From Hormiphora californensis (lineage: Eukaryota > Animalia > Ctenophora): a DNA stretch of 64,000 bases. Within the stretch, counting starts at the first letter, position 1; the number at the start of each line of letters is the position of its first letter. Below, in pieces: positions 46-49,885 of this stretch. The DNA lies in the NCBI GenBank assembly GCA_020137815.1, contig CM035360.1:6634001-6698000 (forward strand). Reading direction: 5' to 3'. The notes below the pieces were generated by a model that was given only the letters and a program-made list of their open reading frames with translations, searched no databases and was not told the DNA's origin. A program made the translations under genes and the position numbers.

Positions 46-4450
<4,405 letters not shown>

Positions 4451-4933
4451 ATCTAATCCACTGAGAGAGAGAGCGTTTATAGACCTTCCAAAACTAAACT
4501 GTTCAGTTGGTTAGTGTTATCATGGGTTTGCAATTAGAAAGTGAACGAGTTAGATCAAGTTGGGTTTGGAATCAGAAAAAAAAACAAATACAAAAGTTTT
4601 GAAAAGCACTAGCAAAAGAAAGGGAAAGAACGCAAATGTAACGCTATGAAAAAAAGTGAAGGGGAGAGCAAATGGGCGATTCTTCTCCAACAACATACAG
4701 GTGGATGTTAAGAGTCTGGTAGAGCTGGAATCTCCAATTATAACATTGTTCAGAACACATTGTCCAGTGCTTTATAGCACCATGAAAACAGATCTGCAAA
4801 CCACCAAGACATAGAGAGGGAGAGAGGGAGGGGGAGAGTTTCCAAGTTTCGATAGACCACCTCGCCCAACAGGCAATATTATTGCTTGCCAATACAAAAC
4901 TACTGCAGTACCAACTAATAGCCACCGTTTCAG

Positions 4934-11126: not shown

Positions 11127-14100
11127 ATGGCCGTCTGCCCCGTTGCTTTGACCTATGGAACAGGTATGTTTGTTTGTTGTTGTATATCTTCTGTTGCGTA
11201 TCGTTGTTTGTTTACGTTCTACTATCTACTCTCCACATGACTTCACTGTTTACTCTCCACAAAATACTTACACAACATTTGCATTGCTAACACAACAATT
11301 TATTTTTCAGCGCTCGAGGCGTTTCTGGAGCAGTGTGATTTCTGCAGGAGGGAGGGGAGCAGGTTTAGGAAGTGTGGAAATGTGGGCATGAACTCCTGTA
11401 TGTTCTACGAAAATAAAGTTCAGGAACTCAAATGGTAAGTAGGTACATCGAGTTGTTACGTTGTTACCGGGGTAAATGGTTCGTCACGAAGTCACCCCTA
11501 TCGTTGTTTTATATTGCGCAGATGGGTAATTTCATTACCAAGGTAAATGGTTCTCCAGTTCTTTACTAGTTTAGTTATTTCTTCTCCTGCGGAGTTGCTT
11601 TAATCCTTCTTACCGGGGTGCGGTCAAGCAGAGAATGGCCGAGTGGGGTGATTCAAGAGGTCACGAATCATGGGACAGCAGAACTTCTGCTACCCCTTTA
11701 TCCGTGATTGGGTTGAGATCTCTGCGTGATGACTCTGAGATCTAAATATAGCCCAGAATATATGTTGCTAATTTCCCTTTTATCCTATCCCCCATTGTTA
11801 ACCCTCCCCTCCTATTCAACAGGGAGATGCACCAGTTGAAACAGCAGTACGAACAGATGGATACTGGGGATTTGATCACCCTCCACAGAGTACCAGTGTA
11901 AGTTGTACAATTCTAATGATAACAACAAACATGAACAGATCTGTTATTCTGTTTGTAAATTGTAAAACATTCTAACAACAAACATATTGTTCACTCGATA
12001 ATCTAAAGAACCTTCCAACACTTTCTACAACAATAAATATATCTTCTCTCTTCCGTTCAGTAAAGTTCCTGTCTCTGATGAGAATGAACGTATTGATGAA
12101 AACCAGATTAAACTTACTATCAACGACCTTGTGTGAGTTAAAATGGTACTATAGAAGTTTTAGTTAGTTCCCCCGTGACCCCTGTCCTAACAACTTTTTG
12201 TTTTAGTCCCATGTGATTTCACTGATTCCTGATTCCTGACTTTTCATCCTCGCATTAGTTTATCTTTTTAGGTTTATCATTAGGTTTTTAACTTGGTTAC
12301 AATCACGAGACTCCCTGACCAAATCACGAACAGATTTAATCTAATAACTCTCTCACGCAAACATGAATATATGTGTGACTAGCATATTCAATCGTTATGT
12401 ATATTTCTAGCCAGTTCTAGAACACCACGGGCCTCTAAAACACCATGTGTCATTTGAAGAAGGACCTTAATTTGATTTGCCAGACACATGTCGGGTGGCA
12501 GACCAGGTTTTTAAAGTCATGGGAGAAGGGTAAAAGTAAATAGAGAGGGTCCTGTAACGTGGGAGAGTTCTTTACTAATCCTAGTAATAAGGGAGCTCAC
12601 TCCGCAATAATATGTGCTCATGTGACGGAGAGCGACAGTGACGGACGGACGAATGGGAGGTCCAAACAATGAATAATTCATGTTTCACGTGATGATAACA
12701 AAAGTTGACCGCTTATCTAGTGTAATTCTTTTCTCTCGATGACTCACCTCGTATATTATTCAAAAACTTTCGTCCTCCTTTTGGCGAACATTCCATTAAC
12801 ATGCGGGGTGCCGGGTGGGGAAGTAGAACTTACTATTTCGTCACTGTTTTATCTGCACTATTGAAGTCACTGTCCCTATCTGAGGTATAATAAGGGACAG
12901 TGACATCACTTCCTGTCCCTCTAGAGACAAAGCGGTCTTTGCAGACGAAGGCAGCCCTACCCCACTTCTCACCCTAGCTTCATATCCACTAACACTCTCC
13001 CAGAGTTCCCCTAACCCCTAACTAACCACTCGTAACCCACTCCTCCCCTCTCCCAGATATCTACCAGAGTTTCCCAGTAAGAAGACATACCATTTCCGGT
13101 ACGTGGTGTGTCTGCCCCTCCAGAAACATGTCCTTCAGGAGAGCAAGACAGAGCTGTTCAAACAATGCGAGGTGGAGAAGGTCCTGAAGAACATGATCTT
13201 CGAATATCCAAGGTAATATAGAAATGTGATTATATATAACGTGACTTAGTATATTGTGGATATTATAAATTTTGGCTCTTTCCATCGTGTTTCCGTCGGG
13301 TTTCCGTCCAGATAGAGAATAGTATGAAGTATCGTCCCTGATGATGTCACACATTACGGGTCCTATTATTCAGGAATTCGTTTCTTTTACTCATATTATG
13401 ATAATATGATTATCTTTATCTCTGCCTTCCCATGTATTGAATAGCAAGCAAGCAGAAGGCCTCTTATAAACCCAAAAGGATTGTTTCTATTCCGTATTGA
13501 TCCTATAAAAGGACGAATCATTGGGATTAGTTGTGCCAGGATTACCCAGAGAGCGACAACTCCACGCAGCACTCTTCGAACCTGCGACGACTATTTCTTC
13601 ACTTCTTGGCATCCCCTCTCGGGGGCGTCCTTGCCTCGATCCGGCGAGCCCTGGGACTGCACGGCCAATGTAGTCCCTACCTCTCCGGCTCTTGGTTCGG
13701 GGTCCCCGGCAGGGTTGTCATTGGCTTGATGACCTAGGCGTGTAGTTTAATTTACAGTTTACTGATAAGTTACAAGTAGAAGGTGCACCAATTGCGGGGT
13801 AGTCTGGCTGTTCTTTTGTCGTCGAGTCGATTTATTCCCTCACGCATGACGCATGTTTCTTGTCTGTCTTCACACAGTTCACATGTATATCGTATGACAT
13901 GACCTCTTATCTACAGAGTATCACACTCAAACTCCAAAGGGTTGTTTCTATTCCGTATTCCTCCTATAAAATGACGAAACATGTTATCTAGTTGCGCCAG
14001 TATTACCCAGAGAGCAGACCGGGAAAGCTCCACGCAGCATTCTTCGAAACTATAGAACGCCGATCTCGAGCAGACCGTGGCGCCTTGTTTCGGGGAGCCC

Positions 14101-15301
14101 CCGTCACGCGCTCTTGGCGCCCGGTCCCGGCACGGCCATGCGGTCCTGCACGGCCAATGCGGTCCCTCACGGCCATGCCGCGGTTCCAGGTTCCACTGGC
14201 GCCTGGTGGGAGCCCCCCGGATACGGGTAAAATCGTCTGGTTGACCTGGGCGTCGTAGCACCAAGTAGAAGGTGCAACAAACGCGGGGTAGTCTGGCTGT
14301 TCTTTTGTTTCATTATGACGTCATTACCCCCTCATTATGACGTCATAACGTGTGTGTATTTTCAGGTCTGATGAGAAGATGCAGGAATCACTCCGTCGAG
14401 GCTACCTCACTATTGAATTGTATGCTGCCAGAAAGCTGAAATCCCCCTACATTATTGGAGCGACCCGGATCCCCCTCTCAACTCTCTTCACCCAGTCATC
14501 TCTAACAGGGACCATTAATCTGGGAGAGAGGGAGAAAGGGGCTGGACTCTGGGAAATGAGTTACAGTATTACAATCCGACGACCTCAAAATAAGGATGTG
14601 AGTACGTTTCACAATTATATTCCTCTCTTTGGGATATAATGCGGTCGTGACCATATTATATTTCCGTTTTTATTCAGGCAATCCCATCACCCACATAATT
14701 TCCTATTCCGTTTTAATTCAGTCATAACAATCCTGTCACGTTTTAACCCCCCTCCTCACTTTATTCACACACTCCATGACATTTCAGACAATCCAATCAC
14801 CCTCTAACCCCCCACAAAATAACCTCTAACCGTCCTTGTCCCAATTCAGGCTCGAGAAAACTTCACTCTCGTTGAGAAGACATGGCTGGCCCTTGAACCA
14901 CAGAAAGATAGTAGCAGAGCACGACGCTCCTCCATAGCCTGTATGAACGCTAAACTTAGCAACCGAACTAAAAAGTCAAAACGGCACTCACAGATGAAGG
15001 TATTTTATTGCACCTCTCACTCAAATCAAGTTTTTCTAGATTTGTCAAGTGTTCCAAACCAAGCTAAACCCCTACTCTTGCGTGTCCCTAACATCCCCTA
15101 CTCCCCCTACAGTTATCAACTAATGAGAATTTATCGCCAATCAAAACAAAACAAAGCTCTCTGGAGGAAGAGAAAGACGAAGAGGAAGAGGATAACCAAC
15201 AAGACGTGAAAGAAGATAAAGTTAGCGATAGTTTAGTGTCAGGAAACACTGCTGCCAAAGTGAAAAAGACGTTTACCAGACGACTTAGCACCATTTTCTA
15301 G
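11127..15301 (+). CDS. CC2D1/Lgd-like C2-domain protein (~344 aa), apparently without DM14 repeats
   Basis: Exons 11127-11163, 11311-11434, 11823-11897, 12061-12132, 13057-13212, 14366-14597, 14850-14999, 15113-15301 join in frame (1035 nt). Helical region (LEAFLEQCDFCRREGSRFRKCGNV) plus a C2 domain ending ITIRRPQ...VEKTWLALEP, similar to CC2D1A VRIREPL...TERWLVIDP. Confidence 0.7.
13481..13510 (+). promoter_or_regulatory. Upstream element + TATA box of ncRNA candidate 1 (type-3 Pol III-like)
   Basis: TTGTTTCTATTCCGTATT (13481-13498) and TATAAAA (13504-13510). Both are conserved at identical spacing upstream of copy 2. Confidence 0.55.
13529..13817 (+). ncRNA. Unassigned structured ncRNA candidate, copy 1 (~290 nt)
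   Basis: Starts 25 nt after the TATA start. 5' GCCAGGATTAC pairs with 3' GTAGTCTGGC, GCACTCTTC pairs with GAAGGTGC, internal hairpin GGGACTGCA-CGGCCAA-TGTAGTCCC, ends in TTCTTTT. Confidence 0.55.
13942..13971 (+). promoter_or_regulatory. Upstream element + TATA box of ncRNA candidate 2
   Basis: TTGTTTCTATTCCGTATT (13942-13959) and TATAAAA (13965-13971). Confidence 0.55.
13990..14306 (+). ncRNA. Unassigned structured ncRNA candidate, copy 2 (~317 nt)
   Basis: Same 5' and 3' blocks as copy 1 and the same 25-nt TATA spacing. The GC-rich interior is diverged and has three tandem CACGGCCA(A)TGC units. Ends in TTCTTTT. Confidence 0.55.
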
Positions 15302-18705: not shown

Positions 18706-21430
18706 CTATCTATCTAGGAAGAGCTCGACATACCGTGGTCCAATATGTTTCCGATCTTTCTCAACCACAGCCCTCTGAGCCTCCTCAGCACTGCTAAACC
18801 GAACATAAGCCTCCCCAGTGGGTTTCATATCATCGTTATAACACACAAAGACATCACACTCAGATAGGTTGAACCCGGAGAAGAAGTTGAGTATCTCGAA
18901 CTTGTCAGTGTTGTAAGGGATACCCCTCATTCGGACTACAGTTCTAGAGGGTAGGGTTGAGCTGCTTCCGTCTGACCAGCTCTGACCAGGGGCAGGACCC
19001 CCAGCGGGACCTCCACCACCTCCACTAGGACCTCCCCCTGCCCCGGGGGTGTCCGCGGAAAGGAAGGAATCAGAGGAGAAGAGATTGGGGAGCGCTGAAA
19101 ACAAGTTATCCGCTATTTGGTCACTCGTGTAATCTTGTACACTCACTTGAGATAATGACCGGATAAAGTCCAGCGGTAGATCGATAGGGCTGCTCTGGGT
19201 TGTATTGACTGGGTATGGAGAGAGAAGGGGAGGGGGAGCAGCGTCACTGCCACCACTCTTCCGCTGGTATCTAGCATCAGGTGGGCTGGTTTGGGGCCAC
19301 GATTGCTGGGATTTCAGAAGAGACTGGGTAGCTTGATCCAGAGCAAATGCACTGCTTGCCAGGGCCTCTGTCTGCTGCTGTTGTTCCCAGGACGTCATAC
19401 TACCAGGTAGGAGGACAGGGGAGAAGGAACCAGGAGAGGGAGGTGGGAAGATGGTGTTAGGAGACAAGAGATCAGCCCCGTTACTAGGGGACCACGGTGA
19501 GGATGGGATGTTAAACCGGAACGGACCCACTGCATTTATCATCTCTATTCTCGCACATCTAAACACCTCGATATATCTGTTTCCCATGTGTTGCTTGTGC
19601 TTCTCAGTAGCTTTAACTGCATCTTCAACAGTTGCAAAATGCACATAACCGTTGCCGGTTGGTTTGCCAGCTGCGTCGTATATGAAATGGATCCCTCCCT
19701 CTCCGAGAGTCAGACCGGAGAAGAAGTCCATTACTTGGGCCAGGGAGGCTGTGTAGGGTAGACCCCTGAGTTGTACACAGTCCATTATTGTGGAAGGTAG
19801 GGACGCACCACCTGTGTGTGAATGGAATTATTTAACGTGGTGAGTTTAAAATATTGTTAGCTTGTCAGGATCAACTTGTCAAGCTGACATGATAGGGGAG
19901 AGAGATAGAAGGATACAGAGAGAGGCACACAGAGAGACAGAGAAAGAGACATACTAAAGTAGATCCAGTACTTACTCATATCAGGTGGCTTTTTGAACTG
20001 CTGTTTGAGCCATGCGTCCTCTACTCGATTATCTGGCACCCACAAGTTGGGTACAATAGGAGAGGTAGGGTTGGAAGCGAACGGTTGCCCCATACCTGAA
20101 AGAAAGAGAGGTTGACAACAATAATTAATGAGAAATAATTCTACAGAAAGAGCCCCGCCAGCTGTGTGGAATGTTGGGCCTCTGGAATGGGGCGGGAAGG
20201 GGGGCGCGGGGTGTTAGCCTAGTCGAGTGCGCGCACTTGGAACATCTCCAACCATTATGCTACAGAGAAAGGTAACTGCAGTAGACTTGGTAAGCAGGTG
20301 AAATACCGCGCGTTACTGCTCGTCCGAGTCATGCGCTCTCCGCCTAATAAAAAAGCTTTCTTTAGCACGAATCCAGGTGGTGGAAGCCTCTAGCATTAAA
20401 GAAAGGAGAGATAGAGACGGGGTATGAAGAGAGAGAGATAGAGAGATAGAGAGAGAAAGATAGGGAGATAGAGAGAGATAAAGAGAGAACAAGTAACTAA
20501 CAGAGACTTGGAAAGATAGAGAAGTGTAAATTCTTTGTTAGCAGTTGATTGCATGAGCCAATGTTGTGTCAACTGTTGATATAATACTTAGGTAGATCAT
20601 TTGGCTCCAGTAATTATAGTGGGGCAATGTCGGATGCCGCTATAAGGATCGGGGATCCTAATTCAAAGGATCATGTCCTCCGATTCATTGCTCCGATTGT
20701 TAGAGTAAACAGAAGCCCAGAGAATTATTACTTATGAACATGGAAAATAGTAATTTGATGAGGAAATACGAGAGAGAAAGGACTATTGAAGGGCCGAGAA
20801 AAATCAGAATCTGGGGAGGTATATGACGGGTATGGGACAAAGCGAGGAATCAGAACTGCACAGAGCTGTATTTACCACCCAGGCCACATACAGTGTTTGA
20901 CACTCCCCTCTCTCTATCTCTCTCCCTCTCTCTGCTGTAGTCATTACCTAATTTGATTTCTTAATGTAACTACACAACTGTTCTCCGTACCTCTGGAACC
21001 TCTCTTCTTCTTCTTCTGCTGATGGTCTGGTGATGCGTGTAAACACAAATTAACACCGCCAACTACCAATATTATATCTGAGTCTCAATTCTCTCTCTTT
21101 TCAGTTTATTATTCTCTCATTTTCAATCTCTTCTTTTTTTGTTCTTTCTTCTTCTTCTGAATCTGTATCTCGAACATCTCTGATCTACCTTTTTTTGCTG
21201 ATCTATTGTTAGGTGATACCTATCTAGATCACTTAGTGCAGCTGATGATACTGTGACTTATTTGTTATCCCACTCTTTTAATATCTTCCTTTATTTTCTC
21301 CTACACACACAACACTATTTGTGTCTTACTACTCAGAGCTGTACTGTACAATTGTGTATATCTAGCAGCAGTAGAAGATCTACTGAGGGAGAGAGAGAAA
21401 GAGGGGGAGAGAGAGAGAGAGAGAAAGAGG

Positions 21431-24337: not shown

Positions 24338-27142
24338 AAAAAAAAAAAGGTAATTTGGGGGGGGAAGAGGAAAAAAACGTTTCGTTGTGGTTTTCGTGTC
24401 TTGTAAAAGGCCTGCTATGACGGGGTGGGTGGGGAGGACCTTGCTTTTTGCTTGTGTGATGCTGAAATTCCCCCAAAATTTTTTCTCTCTTTTCTCCCCC
24501 CCTCCCCTTTCTTCCCTTCCTTCCCCCCTTTTCTCCCCCTTCCCATCCCCCTCCCCAATCCCTTCCCCCCCTTTATCAAGCTACCCCTCTCATCCCAAGC
24601 CATCTCTTCTCCCTGTCATCTTTCCCCTTCATCTCCTTTCCTCCCTTTCCTTTGATGGCTCATAATTACTAGTGGCTTTTAAACAGTCTTAAACACCCCT
24701 TAATATTTTCCGAAAAATCGGGGGGGAGAGAAGAGGGAAAAAGAGGATGGGGAGAAAGGAGAAGAGAGAAAGAAAGAGAGAGAGAGGAAGAGAGAAAATT
24801 AGAAGAGAAAAAAAATTTTAAAAAGGAAAACCCCAAAAAAGGGGGGGAAAAAGGAGCGAGGGGGGAAGAGAATATTAAAAGGGGGGGGAAAAAAAAAAGG
24901 GGATAAACCCCAAAAACCCAAAAAAAAGGGGGGGAAGAAAAGGGGGAGGGATTTTGGGGGGGGGGGGAAAAAAGGGGGGGGGGAAAAAAGGGGAAAAGGG
25001 GGGGAAAAAGGGAAGAAAAATAAAAAGAAACCCCAAAAAGGGGGGAAAAAAAAAAGGGGGGGGGCCCAAAAAAAATATATTGGGAAAAACCTGATCTTTT
25101 CAAAGTCTCTTCTACTCACAGAATTAAATGGTGCACTTACACTTTTGTCGTGTCGGATTCAGCTTCGGCCGGGGCTGTGATGCGGGGCTGGCTATAGCTC
25201 TTTTCAAAGCTAACTCCATCTCCTCTCCAGACGATTTAAATAACTCGATGTACCTGAAAAGTGGGGGTATGATTAAATGGAGGTTTGGGATAGTTAACAG
25301 GTTAGAGGGTTTGGAATTGAAAATGAGAACACAGGATTTGTTCGGAGACTCTCTCTCGTTTCGGCCTTATTGAATGATCCTAATAGTATATGTGACCAAT
25401 ATTATAGGGCATAATGATTTGTCCGAAGTCCCCCGACCCTGTGCTGTGTCATGGGAACGGTGGGTTTCAGACGCAGACAGGGAAGGAGTCCCCATCCTTG
25501 TCCCTCTATCCCTTTCTCTCTCTCTATCTCTGTCTATGTCTATCCTCTCTCTTCGTCATCCCTCACTGTCCCTTGGTATGTTTACACATGATGAGCGGTT
25601 TAAATCGCCCGCAACTGATTACGATATGGGTACCAGACAGAAACCAATTAACAGACAAGAAACCAATTAACAGACGATCTAACCAGACAGAAACCAATTA
25701 ACAGACGATCTAACCAGACAGAAACCAATTAACAGACGATCAATCAGACAGAAACCAATTAAAAGCTATCTATCCAGACAGATTAGGTAGGAAATGCGAC
25801 AACTAAGGGAACAGTATTCCTAAACCTCCTAAAAGTCCTAAAATTATACGGATACATCCCCTATGACACAGTGTGTAATATGAAACCTTCCAAAACCCAA
25901 AACTGCAACACTTGTATATTGTTGTAGTATGTTGTTGATGTTATTACAGTGTGCGATAACTGTTTCCGTGTGTAAACAAGCTACTTGACAGTGCGTCAGT
26001 ACGTGTGGTAAGTGTTGTAGTTGCTTGGGGTGATTAATAATAAAAGTATAGCTGAGAAATTCGGGGTGGGGGAGAGAGAAAGAGAGAGAAAGAGAGAAAA
26101 AGAGAGAGGAAGAGAGAGGAAGTTGTGTTCTGAAGAAGAAGAAGTGGAAGGCATTGAGGCACGAAGTGTATTCGTGTGTACACAATTTGTGAGCTATGTC
26201 TCTCTTCCTACCTCTCTCCCGTGTCGGTCAGTTCTCTCATTTCTCTCTCCGCTCTTTCCTTATTTCTCTCGGAGCGCGTGTGTACCAATTATGGAGTAGG
26301 AAACCGCTATTACGGTAGTGTAATATGCTAACTGGGAACCGCTCCCACAATTCCCATTGGCTGGTTACTGTCACGTGACCCCCGTGAAGCGCTCTCATTG
26401 GCTCAGCCGCAGACACGACGCTGTCTGTTTCGCGGCGTGGTGGTGTGTTAATTTTTTACACACGGAAGATAGAGGTCGCATAGTTCCTTAAATTACCGTT
26501 TACCGATATATATATGTACCTACTAGGGGTGCCCCACGGGGTTAAATTTACTTCCTCCTTCGAGAAATAGGGGAGAGAGAGAGAGAGAGGAGATAATAGA
26601 GAGATGGATCGGGATTGTAATAAATTTAACCAATTGGAAAGCTCTAAAAACCATAATATTACTAATTATCACAAATTATCACAAATTATTACCTTTTTCC
26701 AATATGTTCCCTGTTCCGGGTCATGGCTCGTTGGAAGTTATCCTCATCACAAAACAGCACATACGCCTCCCCCGTTACCCTTCCGTCTCCGTTCCTTGCC
26801 AGGACAATGCCATCCTGACTTATCTCCAGACCTGGAAGGGGAGATGGTTAAATCTAACAGGAAAATAATAAAATGGGGGAGGCGAGCGGAAATGTATGGG
26901 ATGGAAATTCAAATTGCCAAGGAACAGAGACATAATGAATAGTGAAATGCGCCAGATGGAGATGAATAAAAGAAAGGAAAGTGGTATACCATCAACACAG
27001 CTGGTGACAGCGTGCAATAGCAGCTAATTAATGATTGCATTAATAATGTCTCCTTACCACTGAAGAATTCTCTAATATCGTGAGGGGTAGCGGACCATGG
27101 TAGGCCCCTCATTCGGACAACAGGGCCACAAAAACGCCCCAT
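18706..27142 (-). CDS. ESRP/Fusilli- or hnRNP F/H-family RNA-binding protein with three quasi-RRMs (~520 aa)
   Basis: Exons 27058-27142, 26693-26831, 25141-25253, 19976-20095, 18706-19811 join in frame (1563 nt). qRRM motifs: VVRMRGLPW...TGEAYVLF...HIGKRYIELFKS, DCVQLRGLPY...MGNRYIEVF, VVRMRGIPY...IGPRYVELF. Confidence 0.88.
21400..25080. other. Low-quality / homopolymer-inflated intronic sequence with a noisy duplicated ~400-bp segment (about 22190-22590 and 22800-23190)
   Basis: Many of the differences between the two copies are indels or homopolymer-length changes; 24350-25080 is mostly G/A/C/T runs. Confidence 0.7.
25634..25781. repeat. Minisatellite, ~31-bp unit CAGACAGAAACCAATTAACAGACGATCTAAC
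   Basis: About 4-5 imperfect tandem copies read directly. Confidence 0.85.
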
Positions 27143-29088: not shown

Positions 29089-32000
29089 ATGAAGTGCTAC
29101 TATGAAGTATTGGGGATTGAAAGGAGTGCAACACCAGATGAGATAAAGAAGGCTCATAGAAAGTTAGCCCTAAAATGGCATCCCGATAAGAATATGGACA
29201 ATAAGGAGGAGGCACACAAAGTTTACCAGGTATTATTATACTGGGATACACTTCCTTTTTACATTTCTTTTTTTCTCTAGCATTCTGTTGAAAATCATGG
29301 TGTTAATTAAACTCAACAACTGCACTGATCAGTAATCAATGCTAACCTCAGGTGATTCAAGAAGCATACGATTGTCTTAGTGATCCACAGGAGAAAGCTT
29401 TTTATGATAAACACAGAGAAACCATTCTTAGAGGAGGTAAAAATAATTTCCATTGCAAACTTCATGTTACGACATGAAGTATGTAGTTCACTTATTAATC
29501 GTTCCTTTCTCTCAACTCATTTTATCTCTCCAGGTTCGGATCATAAGAGTGATGATGTTGATGTAATGTCCTACTACTCCTCCTCCTGCTACTCTGGTTT
29601 CACTGATGATCCTGGCTCCTTCTACCCTGTCTACTCAGAACTCTTTACACGGCTAGCACAAGAAGATGAGAGGTAAATAAATGTGTTTTGAGAATCGACA
29701 CTTTTCAAGCAGCCTGTCAAATTGTGATTCCAGTTAATGAGAACCAGTTAGTTTTGCGAAATCCAAGATCCCCCCTTACAGGTATGTGGACAGTTCAGAT
29801 TGGGAGGTTCCCCCAGTGTTTGGGGACAGTACCACGCCCTACCCAGATGTTAGAGAGTTCTATGGTTGGTGGCAGAGTTACTGCACTAAGAAGAACTATC
29901 TCTGGCTGGATGATCTATACGATATCAGACAGGTACCGGAGCAGGGATCCAGGATCCCTTGGGGGCAATGATTTATAGACCATTTGTGTTCAAATGTTTT
30001 CAAAACCACCCTTTCTCTCAGGCAGAGAATAGACGAGTTCAGAGAGCGATAGAGAAGGAAAACAAGAAAGTAACAGAAGATGCCAGACGAGAATTTAATG
30101 AACAGGTAACCAACAGGAACCGACTGACACAAGTAAACAACCAATCAGAACTCGTTATTTAGGTCACGTGACTGGTTATCAGCCAATCAGGGACCAGTAT
30201 TTCCTGATTCGGTCGGTACCTGGTAACCAACATTTTCTAGTCAGCTAGGACAGTGAGAGCAGGCCCCTGCTCAGCAGGGGTCAAGGTGTATTTGAAATGG
30301 CCTGTCTAATCTTAATCTGTTTTCAGGTTCGCTCATTAGTTAGCCATATCAGAAAGAAAGACCCCAGGGTTCTAGCCCAGAGAGAAAAACAGAGGGAGAT
30401 AGATGAAGAGAAAGCAGCTGCAGGAAAAAAGAGGATAGCTGAACAACGCCGGAAACGTGCCGAGTAAGTTAGAAATTGTATCCCGTATCAATCCAACCAG
30501 TCCTGATTTCACCAAAGAGAATTGAAACAACGGTCTAACTTTTAACAGGTTTTAATGTTTTTTTAACGTTTTTAACAGTTTTCAATTTTTAACAGTTTTC
30601 AGTGTATAAAATCTCAATTTAAAAAAGTCAATTCTCAACCTTCGATTAAACAAAGTCAAAATCAGGAATCCGCATGGCGTGGGCCAGGGCCTCTTGCCAC
30701 TCTTTTTTGTGCTCATAGTCCGTTAGGACAGGCTTCTTTTCCTCTGGTGGATATAGAGAGTCCATCATCTTTTTTCTCTCTCAATGTCCTCAAAGTCCTC
30801 AGCAGAGGTCATGGCATCCCTATCCGCTCACTCAAGTCTCAACCTTCAAATAAAGTCGAAATCTGGTATCCGCATGGCATGGGCGAGGGCCTCCTGCCAT
30901 TCCCTTTTGTGCTCGTAATCGGTAAGCACCGGCTTCTTGTCCTCTGGGGGATAGAGGGAGTCCATCATTTTTTTCCTTATCTTCTCCCTTTCCCTGTCCT
31001 CGAAATCCTCCACCGTTGTCATACCCATCCGTTCATTATTCGAGATGGTAGTTTCCTTGCTGCTGGACGGCTGCACCATTTCAACAGCATCTTCATTTCT
31101 CTCTCAATGTCCTCAAAGTCCTCAACAGTTTGTATTGGAGGCCTCGTTCATGTTATTTGCAGTAATCGGTATACTCCTGGCTGCAGCAGGACTGCACGAC
31201 TTGATTGTCATCTTCTTCGTCCTCTTCAGACGTCCGGTTTTCTAAGTCAATTGTGTCATTGTTCTTTGACACCAGTTTCTCCTCGGCCTCTGTCACAAAT
31301 TCCTCAATTTCTTCCATGAGGACCTTTATACTGAGTTCCTCAGCCTCAGTTAACTCACTCCCTTGAAGTACCTCATCCGCCTTCCTGGACCATCTCCAGG
31401 CCCATCTTACAGCCAGTACTGCAGCAGCCGAGCAGCCAAGGATGGCGATGGAAGCCTTGAACGAAATCATTGTTTGTGGTGAGCCATGTTATCAGACGTT
31501 GAAAACGTTTCTCTCTCAATGTCCTCAAAGTCCTCAACAGATGTCATCTCTATTATCTGCCGAGCAACCGATAATCGCAAGCGAGGTTTTGAAAGATATC
31601 ATGTTTGGTCTTTTATCTTGACTGACGGCGAAAAACGAAAGAACTTTGTAAATTGTCGCTTTCTTCCACCAAGAGCTTCATACTCCGCTCTTCTGCTTAG
31701 GTTACCTCGCTCTGCTCTTCGAGCAATTCCTCTCCTTTCCTTGACTAGCGCCAGGTCCACCGAACAGCAAGGATGACTGCTGCCGAACAGCCAATGATTG
31801 CGATTGACGTCTTTAGAGAAATCAAACTTTCATCAAATACAACGTAAAACTATTTATTGGGGTATATGGGCGACAAGTACCATATTCACGAAACAATTCT
31901 TTATTATGAATTGACGGTTCTGATTGGCAAACTCAAACATTCCAAAACTTCGGTCGCAAAGTTATTTTCCCTCTGTGAGATTCTGAGACAAAAACATTAT

Positions 32001-35000
32001 AAAGGAGCAATGCTCTTCATCCAGTTTGTTCTATCTTTTCTTCCTCATCCAGTTGCAGAAAGTCCGTACTCTCCCACTAATATTGGCCCAAAATGCCGCA
32101 ATAAACTTGTGATGTGACAAACCCATGATACTGGTTGCTGGTAACTGGGAGGTCATGAGGAATTTGAGGCAGAACTAAGATTTGGAGATGGTGGAGGCTG
32201 GTGGGGTAGTATTTCTTGGTTTCATTGTTCACACCAATGGTGTTGGCGGGTGTGACATGACATCGAAGACGCTCATTTAGACGTTTCGGCTGTACGGCCA
32301 TTATCAATAATGCTCAATAAATAGTTTTACGTTGTAGTTAATGAAAGTTTCAAACTTTCATCAACTACAACGTAAAACTATTTATTGAGCATTATTGATA
32401 ATGGCCGTACAGCCGAAACGTCTAAATGAGCGTCTTCGATGTCATGTCACACCCGCCAACACCATTGGTGTGAACAATGAAACCAAGAAAGAACTAAGAT
32501 TAATTTTAGTAAGGAGAAGAGATGTCTGAGACAAGAAATAGGGAAACGAATTGCAATGTATCTAGCGAGTAGTGTATCCCGTATCAATCCAACCATTCCT
32601 GATCTGTTTTCTTGGTATAGAGAATTGAAACAACGATATATAACTTTTAACGGGGTTTTAATATTTTTTTTAAACATTTTCAAGTTTTCAATTTTTATAC
32701 CATTTTAACAGTTTTTAATAAATAAAATCTCAATCTAAAAAGTAAAGCCTCAAGCTTTAATTAAACAAAATCGAAGTCAGGAATCCGCATGGCATGTGCC
32801 AGGGCCTCTTGCCATTCCTTCTTATACTTATAGTCCGTTAGGACCGGTTTCAAATGTTCCGGTGGGTAGAGAGATGCCACCATCCTCATTCGGATCTTCT
32901 CCCTCTCTTCAAATTCCTCGACGGTTGTCGATCCTATCGGCTCTCTATGAGAGCTAGGGGCCTCATTCATGTTGTTGACGGCTCCTCGCTCCTGGCTGCT
33001 GCTGCAGGGCTCTATAATGTCATCATCTGCTTCGCTATCAGACACCCTGTTATCCAGGTCAATAGTGTCATTATTTTTCATCATGGGGGTTTCCTGGGTG
33101 ACAGAATCCTCGCTCTCCTCCATAAGGAGCTTGATGCTGAGCTCTTCAGCTTCAGTCATTTCACTTTGCTCTTCGAGCAATTCCACTTCTTTTCTGGACC
33201 AGCGGTAAGCCCATCGAACTGCAAGGATGGCTGCTGCCGAACAGCCAATAATCGTGATTGATGTTTTCAGAGAAATCATAGTTAGTGTCTTTATTCACGA
33301 GAGTAGAGTACAGACGAAAGAACTTAATAAATTGATGGTTCTGATTGGCACGTGCAAACTCAAACATTCCAAAACTTCGGTCGCAAAGTTATTTTCCCTC
33401 TACTCAAACTGAGACCAAAACATTATAAAGGAGCAGTTGTTTCATTCAGTTGCCGTTATTCCTTGTTCTAACCCTTCCTAACATTTGTAAAGGGGTCGAG
33501 CTAGGCAAGTTGGTCCGTACATAACTCTCCTACTGTACTATTTTCAGGGAAGTTGCTATGTTAGCGGAACAAGAAAAAGAGATGATTGCTGCACATAACG
33601 AGGTATAGTGATTTCTTATCATGTTTCATCAATTCATGTTACATACTGTTGCAGTGATGTACCACTGAAGTTGAGTTTGTTCCACTTAACTTTCCATTTC
33701 TCACTGTGGAACATTCCAGATGCGAGTGTATGGCGCACTTTTTAACTGACATGTCTGGAAGGCGCACACCGCACAACACAATTAAAGGACCTGAGTTGCG
33801 CGCGCGCTAAATTCACCTCCCCCGTTACTGCTGCTCCCGTGTCATTGCAGTGTTCCTTTCCCGGCCCACACAAATTGTTCCTTTCTGTCTCTTAATCCCA
33901 ATGTCCCTTCCAGGCAGTAGCTGGGCTAATGGAGGAATATTCAGACAGTGAAGACGAAGGAGACGCATTCCATTGTCCTCTCTGTAGGAAAACCTTCAAA
34001 TCAGACAAAATGATGAAACAACACGAGAAATCCAAGAAACACAAGGAGAAACTGGCCCAGTTAAGGGAAGAGTTTGCCGATGAACTGGGAGACGACATAA
34101 CGTAGGTAAACTGCTGCTAGACGATAGGGGAATGACTTTAATTAACTTTTCTAATTCCCTGTGTCATTGCAGACAAGAAGAGGAAGATGTGATATCTCCA
34201 ACTCCAGCTAATACATCTGGTAGTGGGAAGAGTAAAAAGAAAAAGAAGAAGAATCGGAGACAAATGAGAGAGGAAGAAGAAGAAGAAGATCCGTATGACA
34301 TGTAGGTGAAAACTGAAATTCCCCTTTTTATGACACGATTTGGAATCCCACTGTATTTTACACTCCTTTTGATCTTAGGACTGAGTTGAAGGATAATCTG
34401 AACGAAGCAGCATCAGAATTAGAACCTGTAGATAACAATTTACAACCTGCTGAGGAGGAAACAACACCCCTCTCTCAAGAAGAAACACCCCTCTCTCCAG
34501 AAGAAGAAACACTCCCAGAAGATCATAGTGATTATATACCAGGGGGTCCTCCCCTTCCTGCTGATGATGCAGAAGAGGAGGAGTGGAGGGTGTACATGAG
34601 TTATTATTACCGGTGAGGAGACAACATATTGTGGAACTCCTGTTATGATCCGGCCTCCCCCTGGAGATTGGTAAGTGAATAAATCGTTTATACTCGTTGG
34701 GGAGAATTGATTTCAAAAACTCTGATTATAACATGGCTCCAGTTTCCTCACACTATCTCTTTCAGTCGTCACCTACCGCCCAGTGAACGCCCTGCCATCC
34801 CTCCTCCCACTGTTGATGGAGAGGAAGAAGAGTATACTATTGTCAACACAGCACCAACTAAAAGGGACCTAGATACAACTGGGCCTAAGGGGGCAGCATG
34901 TAATATGTGTAAAGAAACATTCCCCAGCAAAACCAAACTATTCGCTCATTTGAAAGAGACTGGACATGCAATTAAACCAGAATTTGTACCAAAAGTAACT

Positions 35001-36673: not shown

Positions 36674-39091
36674 ATGGCTAGTACAGAAGGGTTTGTAGAC
36701 ACTTCAGGGTCCACTTCCCAGGAGGCAGATGCCAAGTTTGCCAAGGTCCAGAGGGATTACTATGTAGCCATGCTGGATGAGATGAGAGAGGATTGTGAAA
36801 CTTATAGGAAGGCTACCGAGTAAGTAACATATTGAGTAGTCTCACTATCAAGTATCAACTAAGGAGATGCATCCTGTCCTAAGAATTTCCTTTCTTTTTT
36901 AGCTTGTTCTTTATTTTGTCGTTCCAAATTTTCCATATTTCCACAGCGTATACCCCTTAATAACCCACCCCCTCTCTTCTCCAGATGTCACGAGTACGCT
37001 AAGCTGCTGATAGAACAGATGCGTCAGATCAAGGAGGGGTTTGCTCAGTACGTTAAGAACTGTAACGAGTTTAATGCCGGGGCCAGCTGCCACAATGCAG
37101 GGAACTTGTTGCTTAGAGGAGCCAAACTACCGGACGGTACCATTCCTGTAGGTTGGTCTTCTGTTCTGTTTCTATCAAATCGATTTTATGTCTACTTTTA
37201 GAGAAAGCCATTATTCCAATCCTATCGTTTTTTTAGTTACCACTACTTTTAGGTTGAGAGAGATGTGCCGAGAGCAGCAGAGTTCTATGCCCGTGCGTGT
37301 ACCACTACCTACCCTAGGAGCTGTGTGCCCATTGCTAGGTTGTTACAGCTGGGGAAACACCTCGACAAGGACTATCCAAAGGTAGGTACGAGTTTGGAAA
37401 TGTGAGAGGTGTACATGAATAATAGCTGGTTTGGTACATGTTGTGATAATTGGAAATGTGAGAACGGGTACTGGGAGATGTGAGAATGTTCTAGAAGAAA
37501 AGCTGATTTTCGGGAGTTATAAATCGTGAATTGAGAGGTGGTGTTTGAGAAGTCAGATGGAAATGGGGGAGGAAGAATGTGGTTTTGACAAAATACAAAA
37601 CTCTCAGTTTGTTTTTCAAAACATCAATAACACAGCAAATACCACTAAACACATCCAACTAACAACACAACACACAGTACCACTAGACCCACTGCCAAGA
37701 TACACACACTCAGGTAGTTCCTCGTTCCAAACACTATTAGCATTACACGTCACTGTCTCCCATCCCACCAGCTGGAACCCATCTTCGCACTCAAACTTCA
37801 CCTCTGCCCCAACTGTGAAGGATGCCATGTCACCAGAATTAGGAGAGCTGACTGCTGTAGCAAACTTAACACTCTCCCTAATGTCCTTGCAGCCTTTGTA
37901 ACAATTCAGTAGAGTGGTAGAGTCAGGTACCCACTTGCTGACCCCGTCCAATGTTCCACAACTCAGTTGTGTGTTCCCAGTTGGAGTCTCTGCTGTTGTG
38001 TAGCCGCTACGGCAGGAGAGTGTACTGATAAACTTGAAATTAGGCAGGATGGGTGGAGAGTAATCTTCACTGCTTAGACTAGCCTCGTTGTAGACGATAT
38101 CAATAGATTCGCTAGTTACTGGGGTGCACCCAGGCACGCAGTAGACTTGTCTATAGGAAGTATCACTAGCACTAGGACCCTCGGTTTGGACCCAGATGTT
38201 AGGTTTGAAATACTGGTTATCACACGTTATCTTGATCTCTCCCTGCCTGTTTAACCGGGTCACATCAACTCCAATAATCTCTCTGATCCCGTTAGTAAAG
38301 GTATACCCCTCTCTGCTGCAGTTGACTGTAAACACTGTTCCAGAAGGGAAGGTTGACAGAGCGGTGAAATTCAAACCCCCGGATACAGAAACCATGATTT
38401 GTTCTGGTTTTGTTCCATCTGCATTGTTCCCCGGTATTGGTACCTTGGAAGTGGCTAGATTACAGGATGTGCTCGATGATGTTGAATCGTCATCGTCTGC
38501 TAGAACCAGCGGATTGAGGAGGAGGAGTAGGGACAAGAGAAACATGGTGCAAAACAAAGTGGGATGGATAGGGGTGTAAAAGTCTCTCATAGTTACATCC
38601 GCTTACCAAATACACCAGTGTAGAATAGGGGAGAATTGAGGAAGGGGTAGAGCTGACTATATATCATCCTCTTTTTTTTCAGGCGTTTGAGTATTTGAAG
38701 ATTGGATGTCAAAAGAACAATAATGATAGCTGTTTCTTCCTTGCTAATGCCCACATGCAAGGTAAATGTTTGTAAAATCTGAGTTTCCGTGTTCCGTCCT
38801 TTCGTTATTTCCCAGTCTCTGTTTTGTGTCCAAATTCCAACACCCAATTTATCCCAGGTATGGGAACTGAGAAGAGTTACTCGGCTGCCTGTACCCCTGT
38901 TAGAACAGGGCTGTTCGCGGGGGCATGCCCGATCTTGCCACAACCTGGGAGTCCTGTATTACCATGGCTACGGAGTGGAGAAGAATCTGGACAAGTTCAA
39001 GGAGTTCAGTGAACGAGCCAAGATATTCAGGTTCCAAAAGAAACCAACAGATGGAGGTGGCAGTTCTAGTGGCGGTCCAACTGCCCATTGA
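36674..39091 (+). CDS. COA7: Cytochrome c oxidase assembly factor 7-like Sel1-repeat protein
   Basis: Exons 36674-36819, 36985-37147, 37253-37381, 38683-38761, 38858-39091. Repeated C-x7-C Sel1 motifs (NCNEFNAGASCHNAG, GCQKNNNDSCFFLA, GCSRGHARSCHNLGVLY). One extra C in the run at 38894-38897. Confidence 0.75.
37616..38545 (-). CDS. Intronless sushi/CCP-domain surface protein (signal peptide, ~3 CCP-like modules, GPI-type C-terminal hydrophobic tail), nested antisense in COA7 intron 3
   Basis: Likely start MFLLSLLLLLNPLVLA; last module VGAEVKFECEDGFQLVGWETVTCNANSVWNEELPEC is a canonical CCP; ends GSGSSGTVCCVVSWMCLVVFAVLLMF*. Confidence 0.85.
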   Translation of the reverse strand: MFLLSLLLLLNPLVLADDDDSTSSSTSCNLATSKVPIPGNNADGTKPEQIMVSVSGGLNFTALSTFPSGTVFTVNCSREGYTFTNGIREIIGVDVTRLNRQGEIKITCDNQYFKPNIWVQTEGPSASDTSYRQVYCVPGCTPVTSESIDIVYNEASLSSEDYSPPILPNFKFISTLSCRSGYTTAETPTGNTQLSCGTLDGVSKWVPDSTTLLNCYKGCKDIRESVKFATAVSSPNSGDMASFTVGAEVKFECEDGFQLVGWETVTCNANSVWNEELPECVYLGSGSSGTVCCVVSWMCLVVFAVLLMF

Positions 39092-44900: not shown

Positions 44901-46574
44901 CCCGACAACAATTCAGTTATGATAACAAGCAAAATGTCATGTTAAACCCAATACATGCTTGTCTCTTCGATAGACAAATGCATTCGCCCAGCACATGTTT
45001 TTGTTTTAAAAAGTTTGGCACTTGGATGTTGCCATTTTCTTGATAATATTATTGTCTGACACATAAGGAGAAAATCTGGCCAGTATTTAGAAAGTGTTCG
45101 GCTAACTATACTTCAGTGCTGCTCCCATGGAGTTTGGGTTATTCTAGGGAGGGTGAAGTACAGAAATAACAAAAGTATTTTAATCTGTAATCCACCTTTC
45201 ACCCTTCACATTACTGTCGCTTGTGCTTCACAGCTAGCTGGTCTGAATTTAGCACATGATTATGTGTGAGAAATTCATTGATAAATGTGAAAAAAGCTGA
45301 TGAGTGATGAATATATCATGAAACTTTCTGAATTACAACTCATTTTTATCCCTTTTTTCTCACGTCTCATTCTCAAGATAGTCGTCAGAGTGTCTACTTC
45401 AGCTAGTCACATGACCGTCTACTACAGCTGGAAAGTACTTGTTTTTGCAACAAATTAAAACTTGTGAGTCTCTTTCTCTCTTTCTGTCTCCCCGGCCCCC
45501 TCTATCTCTCTGTCCCTCTATCTCTCTCTCTCTCTGCAAGGTGTATCAGCATCATGCATGGTGCCCGGTAATTAAACTGAATTGAATGTGATCACTTCAC
45601 TGCCCCTCCTCCCTCTCCCATTGGCCAACTATCCCATCACGTGACTGATATCCTGTATCCTGATTGGTCCAGAAGGAAGGGGAAGGGACGCTTTGAGGAA
45701 TTGATACTAATAAAAAACGTGTCTACGGGGTCTAGGGAAGCAATTTCATGTCCCTTTTGATAGCGATTGAGGGACAGTTTTCCAAACATTCTACAACATA
45801 TCTCTCAGAGGATTATCCCAGACGTCCATATAGCAGCTAATTCCCACCCAAAATTAGCTCAAACCTTCCCCAATTTTCGAGTAAAATCCCCCCTCACACC
45901 ACACATATCATGGAGAGAGAGGAGATAAAAGTTACGGGGTCCCATTCTGGCCAATGACCATCCTCCCAGCCAATCACGTGACCCACATCTCACTGTGGGT
46001 AAAATGTTGTGGGTCGCGTGCGTTGACAGGTAAAGAGAGGCGCTGTTACGTCTGTGCTAAAACTTATAAAAACCCCTGCTAATGTCTCATGTCAGAGATC
46101 ACAGAGAGAGAGAAATTTGTAGAATGACAGTTGTGAGTTACATCACGACCCGGTTTGGTGCTTTGACACTTCTCTGGAAATTAATTTTTCATGTGACCTA
46201 GTAGGGGTCTAGAATACCCGAAAATTGGGTTCCCCTCCCCCCACAGGTCTGGCCCAAATATTTGCACTTTAATTAGGGCAGTCGGTGATAAATCATTATT
46301 CTGGCCACACGTCCCATCATTCCAAAAATACACTTCCTGGCCTTGAAATATAATTGTCATAGCATATATTTATCGTGATAGGGGCCGGGGTTGAGAAAAT
46401 TTGATTTTTCTTGTAGACATGTCTTATCGCCCTTTTAGGGATAAAATATAGCAAGTCTGAAAAATCAGGTTGAAGAAATCGGAGAATATAGGGCATTGTT
46501 TCAAACTTGCATCTATCAAATTTTCTCTCATTTCTCCCTATCTCTCCCTCTCCTGGCTCTAAAGACTGCTGATT

Positions 46575-46639
46575 TTTTTGGGGCCCGGGGGGGGGGGCCC
46601 CCGGGGGGAAAAAAAAAAATTTTTTTGGGAAAAAAAAAA

Positions 46640-46672
<33 letters not shown>

Positions 46673-48000
46673 AAGGGAAAAAAACCCAAAAAAGGGGGCC
46701 CCCCAAAAAAGGGGGCCCCCCCCCCCAAAAAAAAACCCCCCCAAAAAAAAAAAAGAGGGGGAAAAAAAAAAGGGGGGGGAAAAAAAAAAGGGGGGGAAAA
46801 AAAAGGGGGAAAAGGGGGGGGGGGAAACCGGGGAAAAAAAAGGGGGGCCCGGGGGAAAAAAAACCCGGGGGGGGAAAAAACCCCAAAAAGGGGGGGAAAG
46901 GGGGGGGGGGAAAAAGGACCCGGGGGGGGGGGAAAAAAAAGGGGGGGGAAAAAGGGGGAAAAAAAAAAAAAAAAAAAAAGGGGGGGGGTTGGGGGGAAAA
47001 AAGGGGGGAAAAAAAAAAAAAAAGGGGGGGGGGGAAAAAAAAAAAAAACCCCAAAAAGGGGAAAAAAAAAAAAAAGGGGGGGGGAAAAAAAAAGGGGCCC
47101 GGGGGGGGGTTTTTTTAAAAAAAAAAAACCAAAAAAGGGGGAAAAAAAGGGGGTTTTTTCCCCCCAAACGGGAAAAAATTTTTTTTTTTTTTTTTTTTGG
47201 GGGGGGGGGGGGGGAAAAACCCCTGGGGGCCGAAAAAAAAGGGGGGGGGGGGAAAAAAGGGGGGGGAAAAAAAAGGGGGGGAAAAAAAAAAACCCGGGGG
47301 GGGGGGAAAAAGGGGGGGGGGGGGGGGGGGGGAAAAAAGAAGAGAGAGAGAGAGGGGGAGAGGGAAAAAAAAAAAGAGAGAGGGGGGGAAAAGAGAAAAG
47401 GGGGGGGAAAAAAAAAAAAAAAAAAGGGGGGGGGGGGCCCCCCAATGGGGAAAAATTTAAAAAAAGGGGGTTTTGGTTTTTCCCCAACCCGGGGGGGGTT
47501 TTTTTAAAAAAAAAAAAAAACCCCTTTCCTTCCCCCCCCCCCAAAAATTAAACCCCCCCCCAAAAAAAAATTTTTCCCCCCCCCCCCCCCCCTTTTTTTC
47601 CCCCCCCTTTCCCAAAAAAAAAAAGGGGGGGGGGAAAAAAAAAAACTTTTTTAAAAAAAACCAAAAAGGGGCCTTTTTTTTCCCCCCCCCCAAAAAAAAA
47701 CCCCCCCTCTTTTTCCCCAATTTTCCCCCTTCTTTTTTAATTTTTTTTCCCGGGGTTTTTTGGGGGGAAAAAATTAAAGGGCCCCCCGGGGTTGGGGGTT
47801 TTTAAAATTTTTTTCTAAAATTTTTTTAAAAAAAAAGGAAAAGGGGGAAAAGGGGGGGGGGGGGGGGAAAGGGGGAGAGGGGGGGGGGAGAGAGAGAAGA
47901 AGGGAAAAAAAAAAAAGGGGGGGAGGAGAAAGAAGGGGGGAAAAAGGGGGCCAAAAAAAAGGGGGGAAAAAAAAAATTTTCCCCCCCTTTTCTTTTTTTC
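46575..48000. other. Homopolymer-run block, probably unpolished low-quality consensus
   Basis: Almost entirely runs of A, G, C or T; the K/G/F/P-rich ORFs here are artefacts. Confidence 0.85.
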
Positions 48001-49885
48001 GTACCCCGGGCCGCTATAGGAAGGACAGCATTCCCTACATATCTTTAACCCTGTATAGTAAGCGGTTCGTGTGTCGTGGGGTCAAGCTGAGCCCTGGAGG
48101 CGGATTCATTTATTAAAAAGCCAATCAATATAATATGCCTCCTTCTTCCCCACGGATTTTGAATGTCCCTGTCCGTACAAATTTAACACACGCTGTCCCA
48201 CACTAGAGCATTCTCCCCCCCCCCCACTCTCATTGTTTTCGCTCCCCTTCCTACATGCAAACAGGTCACATGATGGGGAGGTGGGGGCGCTCCAATATAG
48301 CACAAACTTTACTGTTTACACATAGTACTCTAAAATGGGACTGCACTGAGTGCTACTTCCTTCACGCTTGGAAAACAATGGCACCTCTCTCTCTCTAACT
48401 TCCACCTTCTATTCTAATCTTCATCCAGTTTTACTCCGTGGAGTATTGTAATGGCCTGGAAAACGGCATTGAGGACCCCCGGCAGGCTAGCTGGGGATCT
48501 GATGGAATGAGTTTTTTACTACTAAGTTTACTTACTTAGAGAATTTGGACATTCCTAGCGTAGCGGAGCGAGAGGGAAGGAGAAGTGAAGCGCGAGAGAG
48601 TTCGCCAAAAGGGCTGAGGATAAGTGCGCGAGAGAGATAGGGACGAGAGATAGCGTCTAGCTATGCCGGGGGCCCCCGTTCTCTCCTTCTCCTTCTCGTA
48701 TTCGGAGCAATCGATTCTTGTATAAAAAGACATCAAAGTTAATTTTCCACTCCCCAAGGGGTCTACACTACTCCTTTATAAAACTTTCTACTACACAGAC
48801 CTTTGTTCATTCATTAGCTCTGTGAATAAGGGGGTAGAAGCATGTAATTTCATTATGTGATGGGGAGAGAGGGTTGTAAGGGAGAGAGAGAGTGGTGAAG
48901 AAATGACCTGAGGGAGAATGGTGAAAAAAGAAATGGAGAGAGAGAAGAAAGAGTGGGTTAGGTGGGACAAAAAGAAAGATGCGTAGCAACTTTTTGATAA
49001 TATTACTCCAGCGGTCTAGCCCTCATTGAATCTCTTCTACTAGCTACTTTCCCCTAACCACAGATTTGGGGCCGTGCCCCTTCTGTCCCTCCATCTTTAA
49101 TGATTCTCTCTCTTTTTCTTCTTCTTCTCTCTCTCACCCTCTCACTCATCAAGAGATGTTGTGGTTTCACACGACGGTATCCGTGGTCACAGCTGCTGCG
49201 CCTTGAGTTACTATTGTGTATCTGAAAGAGAAAAGGAAGAAAGTTGAGAGAGGTTATAATATCTGATACACCAAACTGTCTAGACAGTCTGTGGATTCCC
49301 GTTGGTGAGCGTGCGTGGGCGAGTTGACAGATAAACAAACTGTGACCACCAACACGCCATATCTACATATAAAACCAACCAGTGATACATCTAATCACCT
49401 CTAATTACCTCTCGTATCAATGATACTATCATCTCTATTCTGTATACTCCCTCGATACTCGGTAGAGCTACCCTCAAGTAAGCCCAGCTAAACGCCCACC
49501 ACCTCCCCAATATAAACTATATCGGTTAGTACTCCTCCATGCAGGCAGGGATAGTAATTGGATTTTACACAAGACGAGCTTCCTTGTTTTCAGCAAGTGT
49601 ATACTACCCTGCATTATGTGTTGTACCAATGCTAACAAGACATGTAATAGGTGGGGGTAAACAACCCAGCAAACATGTTTGGTAAATGCCATTATTCTGG
49701 AAAATGCCAAACTTCTGGAAAATGCCATATTTTTGGGAAATTTCCCCTTTTCTTAGACTTTGAACATCATTTGATGCTAGGGAATGATGCAATTACAGAG
49801 GATTACTATTAGTGTAAGACGGTTGTTTACAGTTAGTTGCACTGCAGAGCCTGTCTGCAGTTGTACTAACTAGTTAGTGCCCTGA

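Follow-up and report, generated by a model that had tools for sequence, protein, structure and literature searches.

A tandem pair of probable type-3 RNA polymerase III genes inside an intron of the ctenophore Hormiphora californensis

Introduction

An intron of a protein-coding gene in the comb jelly Hormiphora californensis holds two diverged copies of a short unit laid out like a non-coding RNA (ncRNA) gene, which raises the question of whether the pair is transcribed in its own right and, if so, what kind of RNA it encodes. We addressed this question in a stretch of 64,000 nucleotides (contig CM035360.1 of assembly GCA_020137815.1, positions 6,634,001 to 6,698,000), hereafter called the window, whose first letter is position 1. 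The set of animal RNAs that RNA polymerase III (Pol III) makes from type-3 promoters is short and well known, and several of its members were not found in the early-branching Trichoplax (PMC2655684). The two units described below are probable type-3 Pol III RNA genes; the pair is under selection, fits no catalogued family and possibly represents a new ribonucleoprotein (RNP) class.

Results

The two units lie in tandem at 13468-13817 and 13929-14306 (Table 1). An initial annotation, made from the letters of the window, had described an identical upstream element of 18 nucleotides (nt), a TATA box at a fixed distance from the start and a TTCTTTT end, and we recovered all three. The upstream element, which resembles an upstream sequence element (USE) or proximal sequence element (PSE), is the same letter for letter in the two copies, and these are its sole matches in the window with fewer than four mismatches; the next best has four mismatches and is not accompanied by a TATA box. 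From TATAAAA (13504 and 13965) to AGTTG (13529 and 13990) the distance is exactly 25 nt in both copies, and each unit has its earliest + strand run of four T within the TTCTTTT that ends at 13817 or 14306. A type-3 Pol III gene has an upstream element and then, some 21-30 nt ahead of the start, a TATA box, and its first run of at least four T stands at the 3′ end with none internal; this is the arrangement of both units, with the start placed by prediction. The Pol III-transcribed RNase P genes of animals likewise carry a TATA box 21-27 nt upstream and a T4-5 run at the end (PMC4287351), a layout that matches both units and so supports the type-3 Pol III-like reading, and in a fly 7SK-like locus the PSE lies 8 bp from the TATA box (PMC8406779). 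Rfam detected no U6, RNase P or MRP gene in the window. Directly after the copy 2 terminator, at 14310-14349, are two 18-nt direct repeats, each bearing a palindrome, TGACGTCA, that resembles a cAMP response element (CRE); a degenerate form follows copy 1. Control of vault RNA genes by CRE-like elements has been reported (PMC7904556).

When the copies were aligned on their predicted starts, identity fell into patches. BLASTN matched the 5′ parts of the two copies to each other at E 7e-27 and the 3′ parts at E 6e-15. All 18 letters of the upstream element and all nine of CC+TATAAAA are identical, as are 24/26, 20/22 and 42/45 letters of the 5′, middle and 3′ blocks of the RNA. The spacers between these elements have drifted: one letter of three agrees between the upstream element and the TATA box, then six of eight and four of ten just before the start, while the flanks agree at 15/59 positions further upstream (ungapped) and at 7/20 just past the terminator. 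At a background identity of 60-70%, the binomial P for 18/18 is 1e-4 to 1.6e-3. A footprint of this kind, with conserved elements set between drifted spacers, speaks for selection acting on a pair of type-3 Pol III-like genes. Together, layout and footprint lend support to the earlier suggestion of independently transcribed ncRNA genes. As read from the alignment, the patches of identity follow function and not position; purifying selection accounts for this better than gene conversion in patches would. A low-depth contig from run X1 is a weak extra: among the five of its six differences that are listed, three fall in the pre-start spacer, one is unpaired and one turns a C-G into a U-G pair.

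The interior had been described as differing in length and sequence. Drift and many indels are indeed found there, but the two interiors are homologous and not unrelated (alignment z 4.6; none of 300 shuffles matches the score), with about 68% identity over aligned columns by arithmetic. Weak similarity also continues downstream, at a level that none of 300 shuffles reaches, and in short patches upstream. SINE-type (short interspersed nuclear element) target-site duplications, which the initial annotation had named as a sign of a dispersed repeat, were sought around copy 1 and around the pair, and none was found. Since the similarity runs into both flanks without a target-site repeat, we take the pair to be a tandem DNA duplication. 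A profile hidden Markov model of both units detected no third copy in the window.

Both predicted RNAs fold more stably than nearly all dinucleotide shuffles, to which the z scores in Table 1 refer; the consensus core was obtained with RNAalifold. In this core a closing stem (P1) joins the ends, and its one bulged letter is the sole P1 letter that differs between the copies. A small hairpin (P2) and a bulged helix (P3) follow, and P3 carries a long irregular hairpin whose tip is an identical 7-nt loop in both copies. The motif CACGGCCA occurs once in copy 1 (13660) and three times in copy 2 (14131, 14149 and 14168), as had been noted, with one further copy in the window at 3443. In the copy 2 triplication the outer two segments pair together, leaving the middle one as a single exposed loop. 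Two helices proposed earlier fared less evenly. In the CTCCACGC/GCGGGG helix only CGC/GCG forms, the GGG lengthening the closing stem to 12 bp and CUC pairing with an upstream GAG; the GCAYUCUUC/GAAGGUGC helix is part of the lowest-energy fold of copy 1 but is absent from that of copy 2, in which forcing it costs 4.9 kcal/mol.

Differences between the copies spare most of the predicted pairs of the core. Of seven differences in the core blocks, five are unpaired, one keeps its pair and one breaks a terminal pair, which corresponds to 2/54 paired against 5/39 unpaired positions. A sequence-only alignment at the first gap setting kept 13 of 26 changed pairs, with 7.2 expected, and four of the five gap settings gave a similar excess. 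The apical stem differs between the copies at two places, each of which is still paired, and the loop on top is identical. That loop, CGGCCAA, includes a self-complementary GGCC that would form four G-C pairs, with an estimated duplex energy of -8.9 kcal/mol. Elsewhere in the window, nothing matched the reverse complement of the apical loop or of two linkers. Thirteen 'compensatory' pairs reported by RNAalifold were rejected, as they are located in the misaligned interior, and a possible antisense match of the apical motif to 18S rRNA was set aside, the loop form having an extra A.

Table 1. Positions in the window of the host intron and of the promoter and predicted RNA features of the two units
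Feature	Position	Strand	Support
Host intron (coding intron 5 of the C2-like gene)	13214..14366	+	GT..AG ends, tblastn exon map
Copy 1, partly conserved upstream extension of promoter element (-61..-49)	13468..13480	+	10/13 identical to copy 2
Copy 1, upstream element, USE/PSE-like (-48..-31)	13481..13498	+	18/18 identical to copy 2
Copy 1, TATA box at -25	13504..13510	+	9/9 with two preceding letters, against copy 2
Copy 1, predicted 289-nt RNA, start inferred, T4 terminator 13814-13817	13529..13817	+	fold z -2.8; 0/200 shuffles as stable
Copy 1, P1 5′ strand, predicted 12-bp closing stem, pairs with 13797-13808	13535..13547	+	
Copy 1, predicted small hairpin P2, 3 bp	13551..13562	+	7-nt copy length difference sits in loop
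Copy 1, predicted bulged helix P3 5′ strand, pairs with 13779-13796	13565..13577	+	pair probabilities 0.96-0.99; consensus fold
Copy 1, predicted long irregular hairpin (164 nt), apical loop CGGCCAA 13662-13668	13582..13745	+	z -3.69
Copy 1-only A/U-rich side hairpin, predicted	13748..13772	+	gap in copy 2 alignment
Copy 2, upstream element	13942..13959	+	18/18 identical to copy 1
Copy 2, TATA box at -25	13965..13971	+	sequence
Copy 2, predicted 317-nt RNA, start inferred, T4 terminator 14303-14306	13990..14306	+	fold z -3.0; 1/100 shuffles as stable
Copy 2, predicted long irregular hairpin (~209 nt), same apical loop 14151-14157	14050..14258	+	z -3.8
Copy 2, local triplication of ~18-nt apical segment	14130..14185	+	

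We searched for relatives of the units among known RNA families, environmental sequences and the literature. Rfam returned no hit at gathering thresholds over the whole window, and up to an E value of 10 it gave noise from microRNA, small RNA and long non-coding RNA models, the best at E 0.3; ARAGORN found no gene in the window. The units had been judged by eye to match none of signal recognition particle (SRP), Y, vault, RNase P/MRP or 7SK RNA, nor a TTAGGG telomerase template, and Rfam and tests of the defining motifs concur (GARAR, GAUC and UUAUC as given in the papers cited below). For SRP (7SL) RNA, neither the helix 8 motif nor an Rfam match was found. A pattern made from the 3′ block had 41 hits in JGI metagenomes, none with the other blocks; two (L048 and L052) have the apical motif beside the pattern, and L048 looks like unrelated sequence. 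Four patterns gave 6, 5, 0 and 16 hits in viral contigs, none of these 27 showing more than the pattern, and a 5′-block pattern gave seven hits in GTDB genomes, none with the 3′ block. Run X1 yielded four short contigs at a depth of 2.6-4.1; these also span plain intron, promoter and spacer, so X1 is uninformative on expression. Run X2 covers exons only, at less than 90% identity. In the literature searched (top-ranked results, with subscription papers and genome supplements outside), there was no description of ctenophore RNAs of this kind and no paper with both 'ctenophor' and '7SK RNA'. The annotation had proposed a new class or a very divergent known one, and the units do fit no easily recognised family by Rfam and motifs; a very divergent known RNA is still conceivable, because the MRP RNA of Trichoplax was likewise missed by its Rfam model (PMC2655684).

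The placement of both copies in intron 5 of the host gene holds: a tblastn search with the near-identical protein P0143 (97% identity on the exon searched) ranked the host intron fifth among the coding introns and mapped a gene of 343 amino acids, and the flanking exons are joined, with the intron spliced out, in contig ends of a relative. Calling the gene CC2D1-like was right in so far as the protein has a weak likeness to C2 domains (Pfam C2-C2_1, E 0.038; CEP120, E 0.16; Atlas leads also C2-like); the name CC2D1 itself is plausible and unconfirmed. The units have a G+C content of 0.54 and 0.62, against 0.38 for the remainder of the intron. The preceding intron contains a 16-bp inverted repeat at 12862-12908, 94% complementary with a 15-nt loop. 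Elsewhere in the window we noted, on the - strand, a long open frame at 18706-19827 for an ESRP/hnRNP F-like RNA-binding protein (65% identity to a Bolinopsis microptera/Mnemiopsis leidyi protein cluster); paralogous open frames at 31153-31488 and 32761-33294 with an alike hydrophobic N-terminus, the second without a Pfam match; a 328-aa open frame at 37616-38602 with a signal-like start, a Sushi repeat (E 1e-11) and a hydrophobic C-terminus; and a run of exon-sized frames at 368-4510 that by eye resemble domains of immunoglobulin type. Long homopolymer-run stretches at 24669-25180 and 46317-48116 resemble low-quality sequence or an assembly artefact.

Discussion

We regard the two units as probably Pol III genes under selection. 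We give about an even chance to a fuller account in which two tandem-duplicated type-3 Pol III genes would produce folded ncRNAs of about 289 and 317 letters belonging to a new ctenophore family of modular scaffolds, similar in design to Y and vault RNAs yet outside those families. With the help of SNAPc/TBP-type factors, Pol III would begin transcription with the A of AGTTG, along the host gene's strand and independently of the host mRNA, and La would bind the U tail. The near-invariant core, made of the closing stem, the small hairpin, the bulged helix and single-stranded linkers, would bind one core protein, and the long imperfect hairpin would be a spacer arm holding out the CGGCCAA loop to another partner, protein or RNA; the GGCC of the loop could kiss its twin, a dimerisation option. 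From one paralogue to the next, the length of the arm and the side hairpins would vary. A scaffold best explains the combination of a terminal core that hardly changes and has conserved linkers, a paired arm that varies freely and an apical loop that does not vary, and for Pol III RNAs in general scaffold and decoy roles have been proposed (PMC6884708).

Several points weigh against this account. RNA output from both units is a prediction from the DNA sequence, and the scaffold role is proposed by analogy, with a postulated protein partner. Gene conversion between the adjacent copies could explain part of their identity, and an internal T4 run is missing from 296 of 1275 windows of 285 nt, so that its absence from the units is weak evidence. 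The core fold has the lowest energy in copy 1, while the lowest-energy fold of copy 2 does without P3, a penalty of 4.9 kcal/mol. Half of the changed pairs (the other 13 of 26) are broken, one of the five gap settings gave 11 kept and 32 broken pairs with 10.9 expected kept, and two comparable sequences cannot amount to real proof of covariation. Read in the opposite direction, copy 2 is more stably folded still (z -5.2), hence folding does not fix the strand, and the strand call rests on promoter and terminator.

Could the units instead be a catalogued RNA in disguise? The strongest alternative of this kind, though itself unlikely, is a highly divergent ctenophore 7SK small nuclear RNA that sequesters P-TEFb via HEXIM and is stabilised by LARP7 and MePCE. 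The last 20 or so letters of the units may resemble the 3′ end of human 7SK. Like 7SK, the units measure about 300 nt, have a type-3 promoter of PSE and TATA box, bring their ends together and finish in a C-interrupted U tail, U-C-U4 (PMC8406779, PMC3632141); HEXIM predates animals (bioRxiv 10.1101/2023.02.19.529146), and 7SK, a poorly conserved RNA, was not detected in Trichoplax (PMC2655684, PMC8406779). 7SK is, however, described as having an M1/M3/M8 core with repeated GAUC (PMC8406779) and a 3′ hairpin whose loop serves LARP7 (PMC3632141). In the units, by contrast, GAUC is found once per copy, at positions that do not correspond (+110 and +73), and not in a repeated GAUC helix; the 3′ end is predicted to sit in the closing stem (P 0.74-0.86) and not in a free hairpin, a 7SK-like alternative fold is 13.5 and 9.4 kcal/mol worse, and the Rfam 7SK models gave no score at E up to 10. 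True but much enlarged homologues of Y or vault RNAs, binding Ro60 or TEP1/vaults, are decidedly unlikely. Vault RNAs too have a closing stem with a variable middle, and the hexamer UUCGAA, which belongs to the conserved middle block of the units, loosely resembles box B. The gross design is common to all, with paired conserved ends, a variable interior and clustered paralogues (PMC4726728, PMC7904556), and vertebrate Y RNAs and nematode stem-bulge RNAs further share separate Pol III promoters, the U tail and neighbouring paralogues (PMC4726728). But the units are two to three times the usual size (Y about 100 nt; vault 88-140 nt and containing boxes A and B internally, PMC7904556), about three times that of Y and stem-bulge RNAs, and their interior is a long paired hairpin. 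The bulge in their closing stem is G or U, with no 3-nt bulge opposite, so unlike the bulged-C site of Ro60; UUAUC is lacking, box A and box B are absent, and no Y or vault model matched in Rfam. Degenerate paralogues of RNase MRP or RNase P RNA are very unlikely. The 3′ block and the GGGAAAG of copy 2 may loosely resemble the catalytic regions of these RNAs. Size, promoter layout and a GARAR pentamer, kept as GAGAG at +21 in both copies, are points in common (PMC3737539, PMC4287351), and a true MRP RNA can miss its Rfam model (PMC2655684). The units keep their own Pol III signals, unlike intronic insect RNase P genes (PMC4287351), and their P4-like helix is without the bulged U that is absolutely conserved in P/MRP (PMC3737539). 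Forcing that helix costs 8.3 and 2.6 kcal/mol, and GARAR, which in RNase MRP RNA stands in domain 2 after mCR-I, here precedes the P4-like strand; no P4 pseudoknot, CR-I/mCR-I or CR-V was found. The helices nest within one another and leave just 6-7 nt for P15, CR-IV, P2 and P19, and copy 1 lacks GGAAA. A telomerase template, which would be longer than one TTAGGG repeat, was not seen either, as the units contain no permutation of the hexamer TTAGGG, which we take to be the ctenophore telomere repeat. No pseudoknot was apparent; in both respects the units depart from the telomerase RNAs that Pol III makes in plants, ciliates and Hymenoptera, with which they share USE, TATA box, terminator and a long closing stem (PMC12133305).

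Other explanations dispense with a resident RNA family. That the units are source genes of a non-autonomous retroposon, SINE- or retrozyme-like, with an upstream Pol III promoter and copied by a LINE (long interspersed nuclear element) or Penelope enzyme, comes next after a divergent 7SK in probability and is unlikely too. Some SINEs also carry USE elements (PMC12133305); however, there are only two copies in 64 kb, and neither lacks any part of the external promoter; box A/B and a poly-A tail are absent, as is a target-site repeat around copy 1 or the pair, and no ribozyme model matched in Rfam. The imperfect hairpin of 164-209 nt in each RNA, more stable than shuffles, would suit Pol III precursors that Dicer cuts into small RNAs, or decoys for proteins that sense double-stranded RNA, but conservation peaks in the terminal core and apical loop and not in a 22-nt stem segment, and bulges interrupt the stems every 2-9 bp, making this reading hardly probable. 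Least probable of all is a silent relic, that is, a recent tandem duplication homogenised in patches from which no RNA is made. It would agree with there being two copies only, known here from their DNA, but the identity patches correspond to promoter, core and terminator and skip the 3-10-nt spacers between them, and the G+C content of the units stands apart from that of the remaining intron.

If the pair is indeed a set of selected type-3 Pol III genes, its implications reach beyond this intron. We put forward tentatively, as a possibility somewhat short of even, that there is a multi-locus class of modular Pol III RNAs peculiar to comb jellies, borne in tandem intronic clusters, in which a fixed terminal core is combined with an interchangeable hairpin arm ending in a conserved and possibly loop-kissing tip; this would be an RNP class unknown in other animals, and its promoter would offer the first ctenophore type-3 element, a handle on the 7SK, Y, vault and telomerase RNAs still missing from ctenophores. 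A selected Pol III family of about 300 nt in an early animal branch would, if true, mean that an RNP class is new or else that a homologue missing for long, for example a 7SK from outside the bilaterians, has come to light. Promoter-guided genome searches have been used for telomerase RNAs (PMC12133305), and with the 18-nt element as a practical tool such a search would list the whole ctenophore Pol III set.

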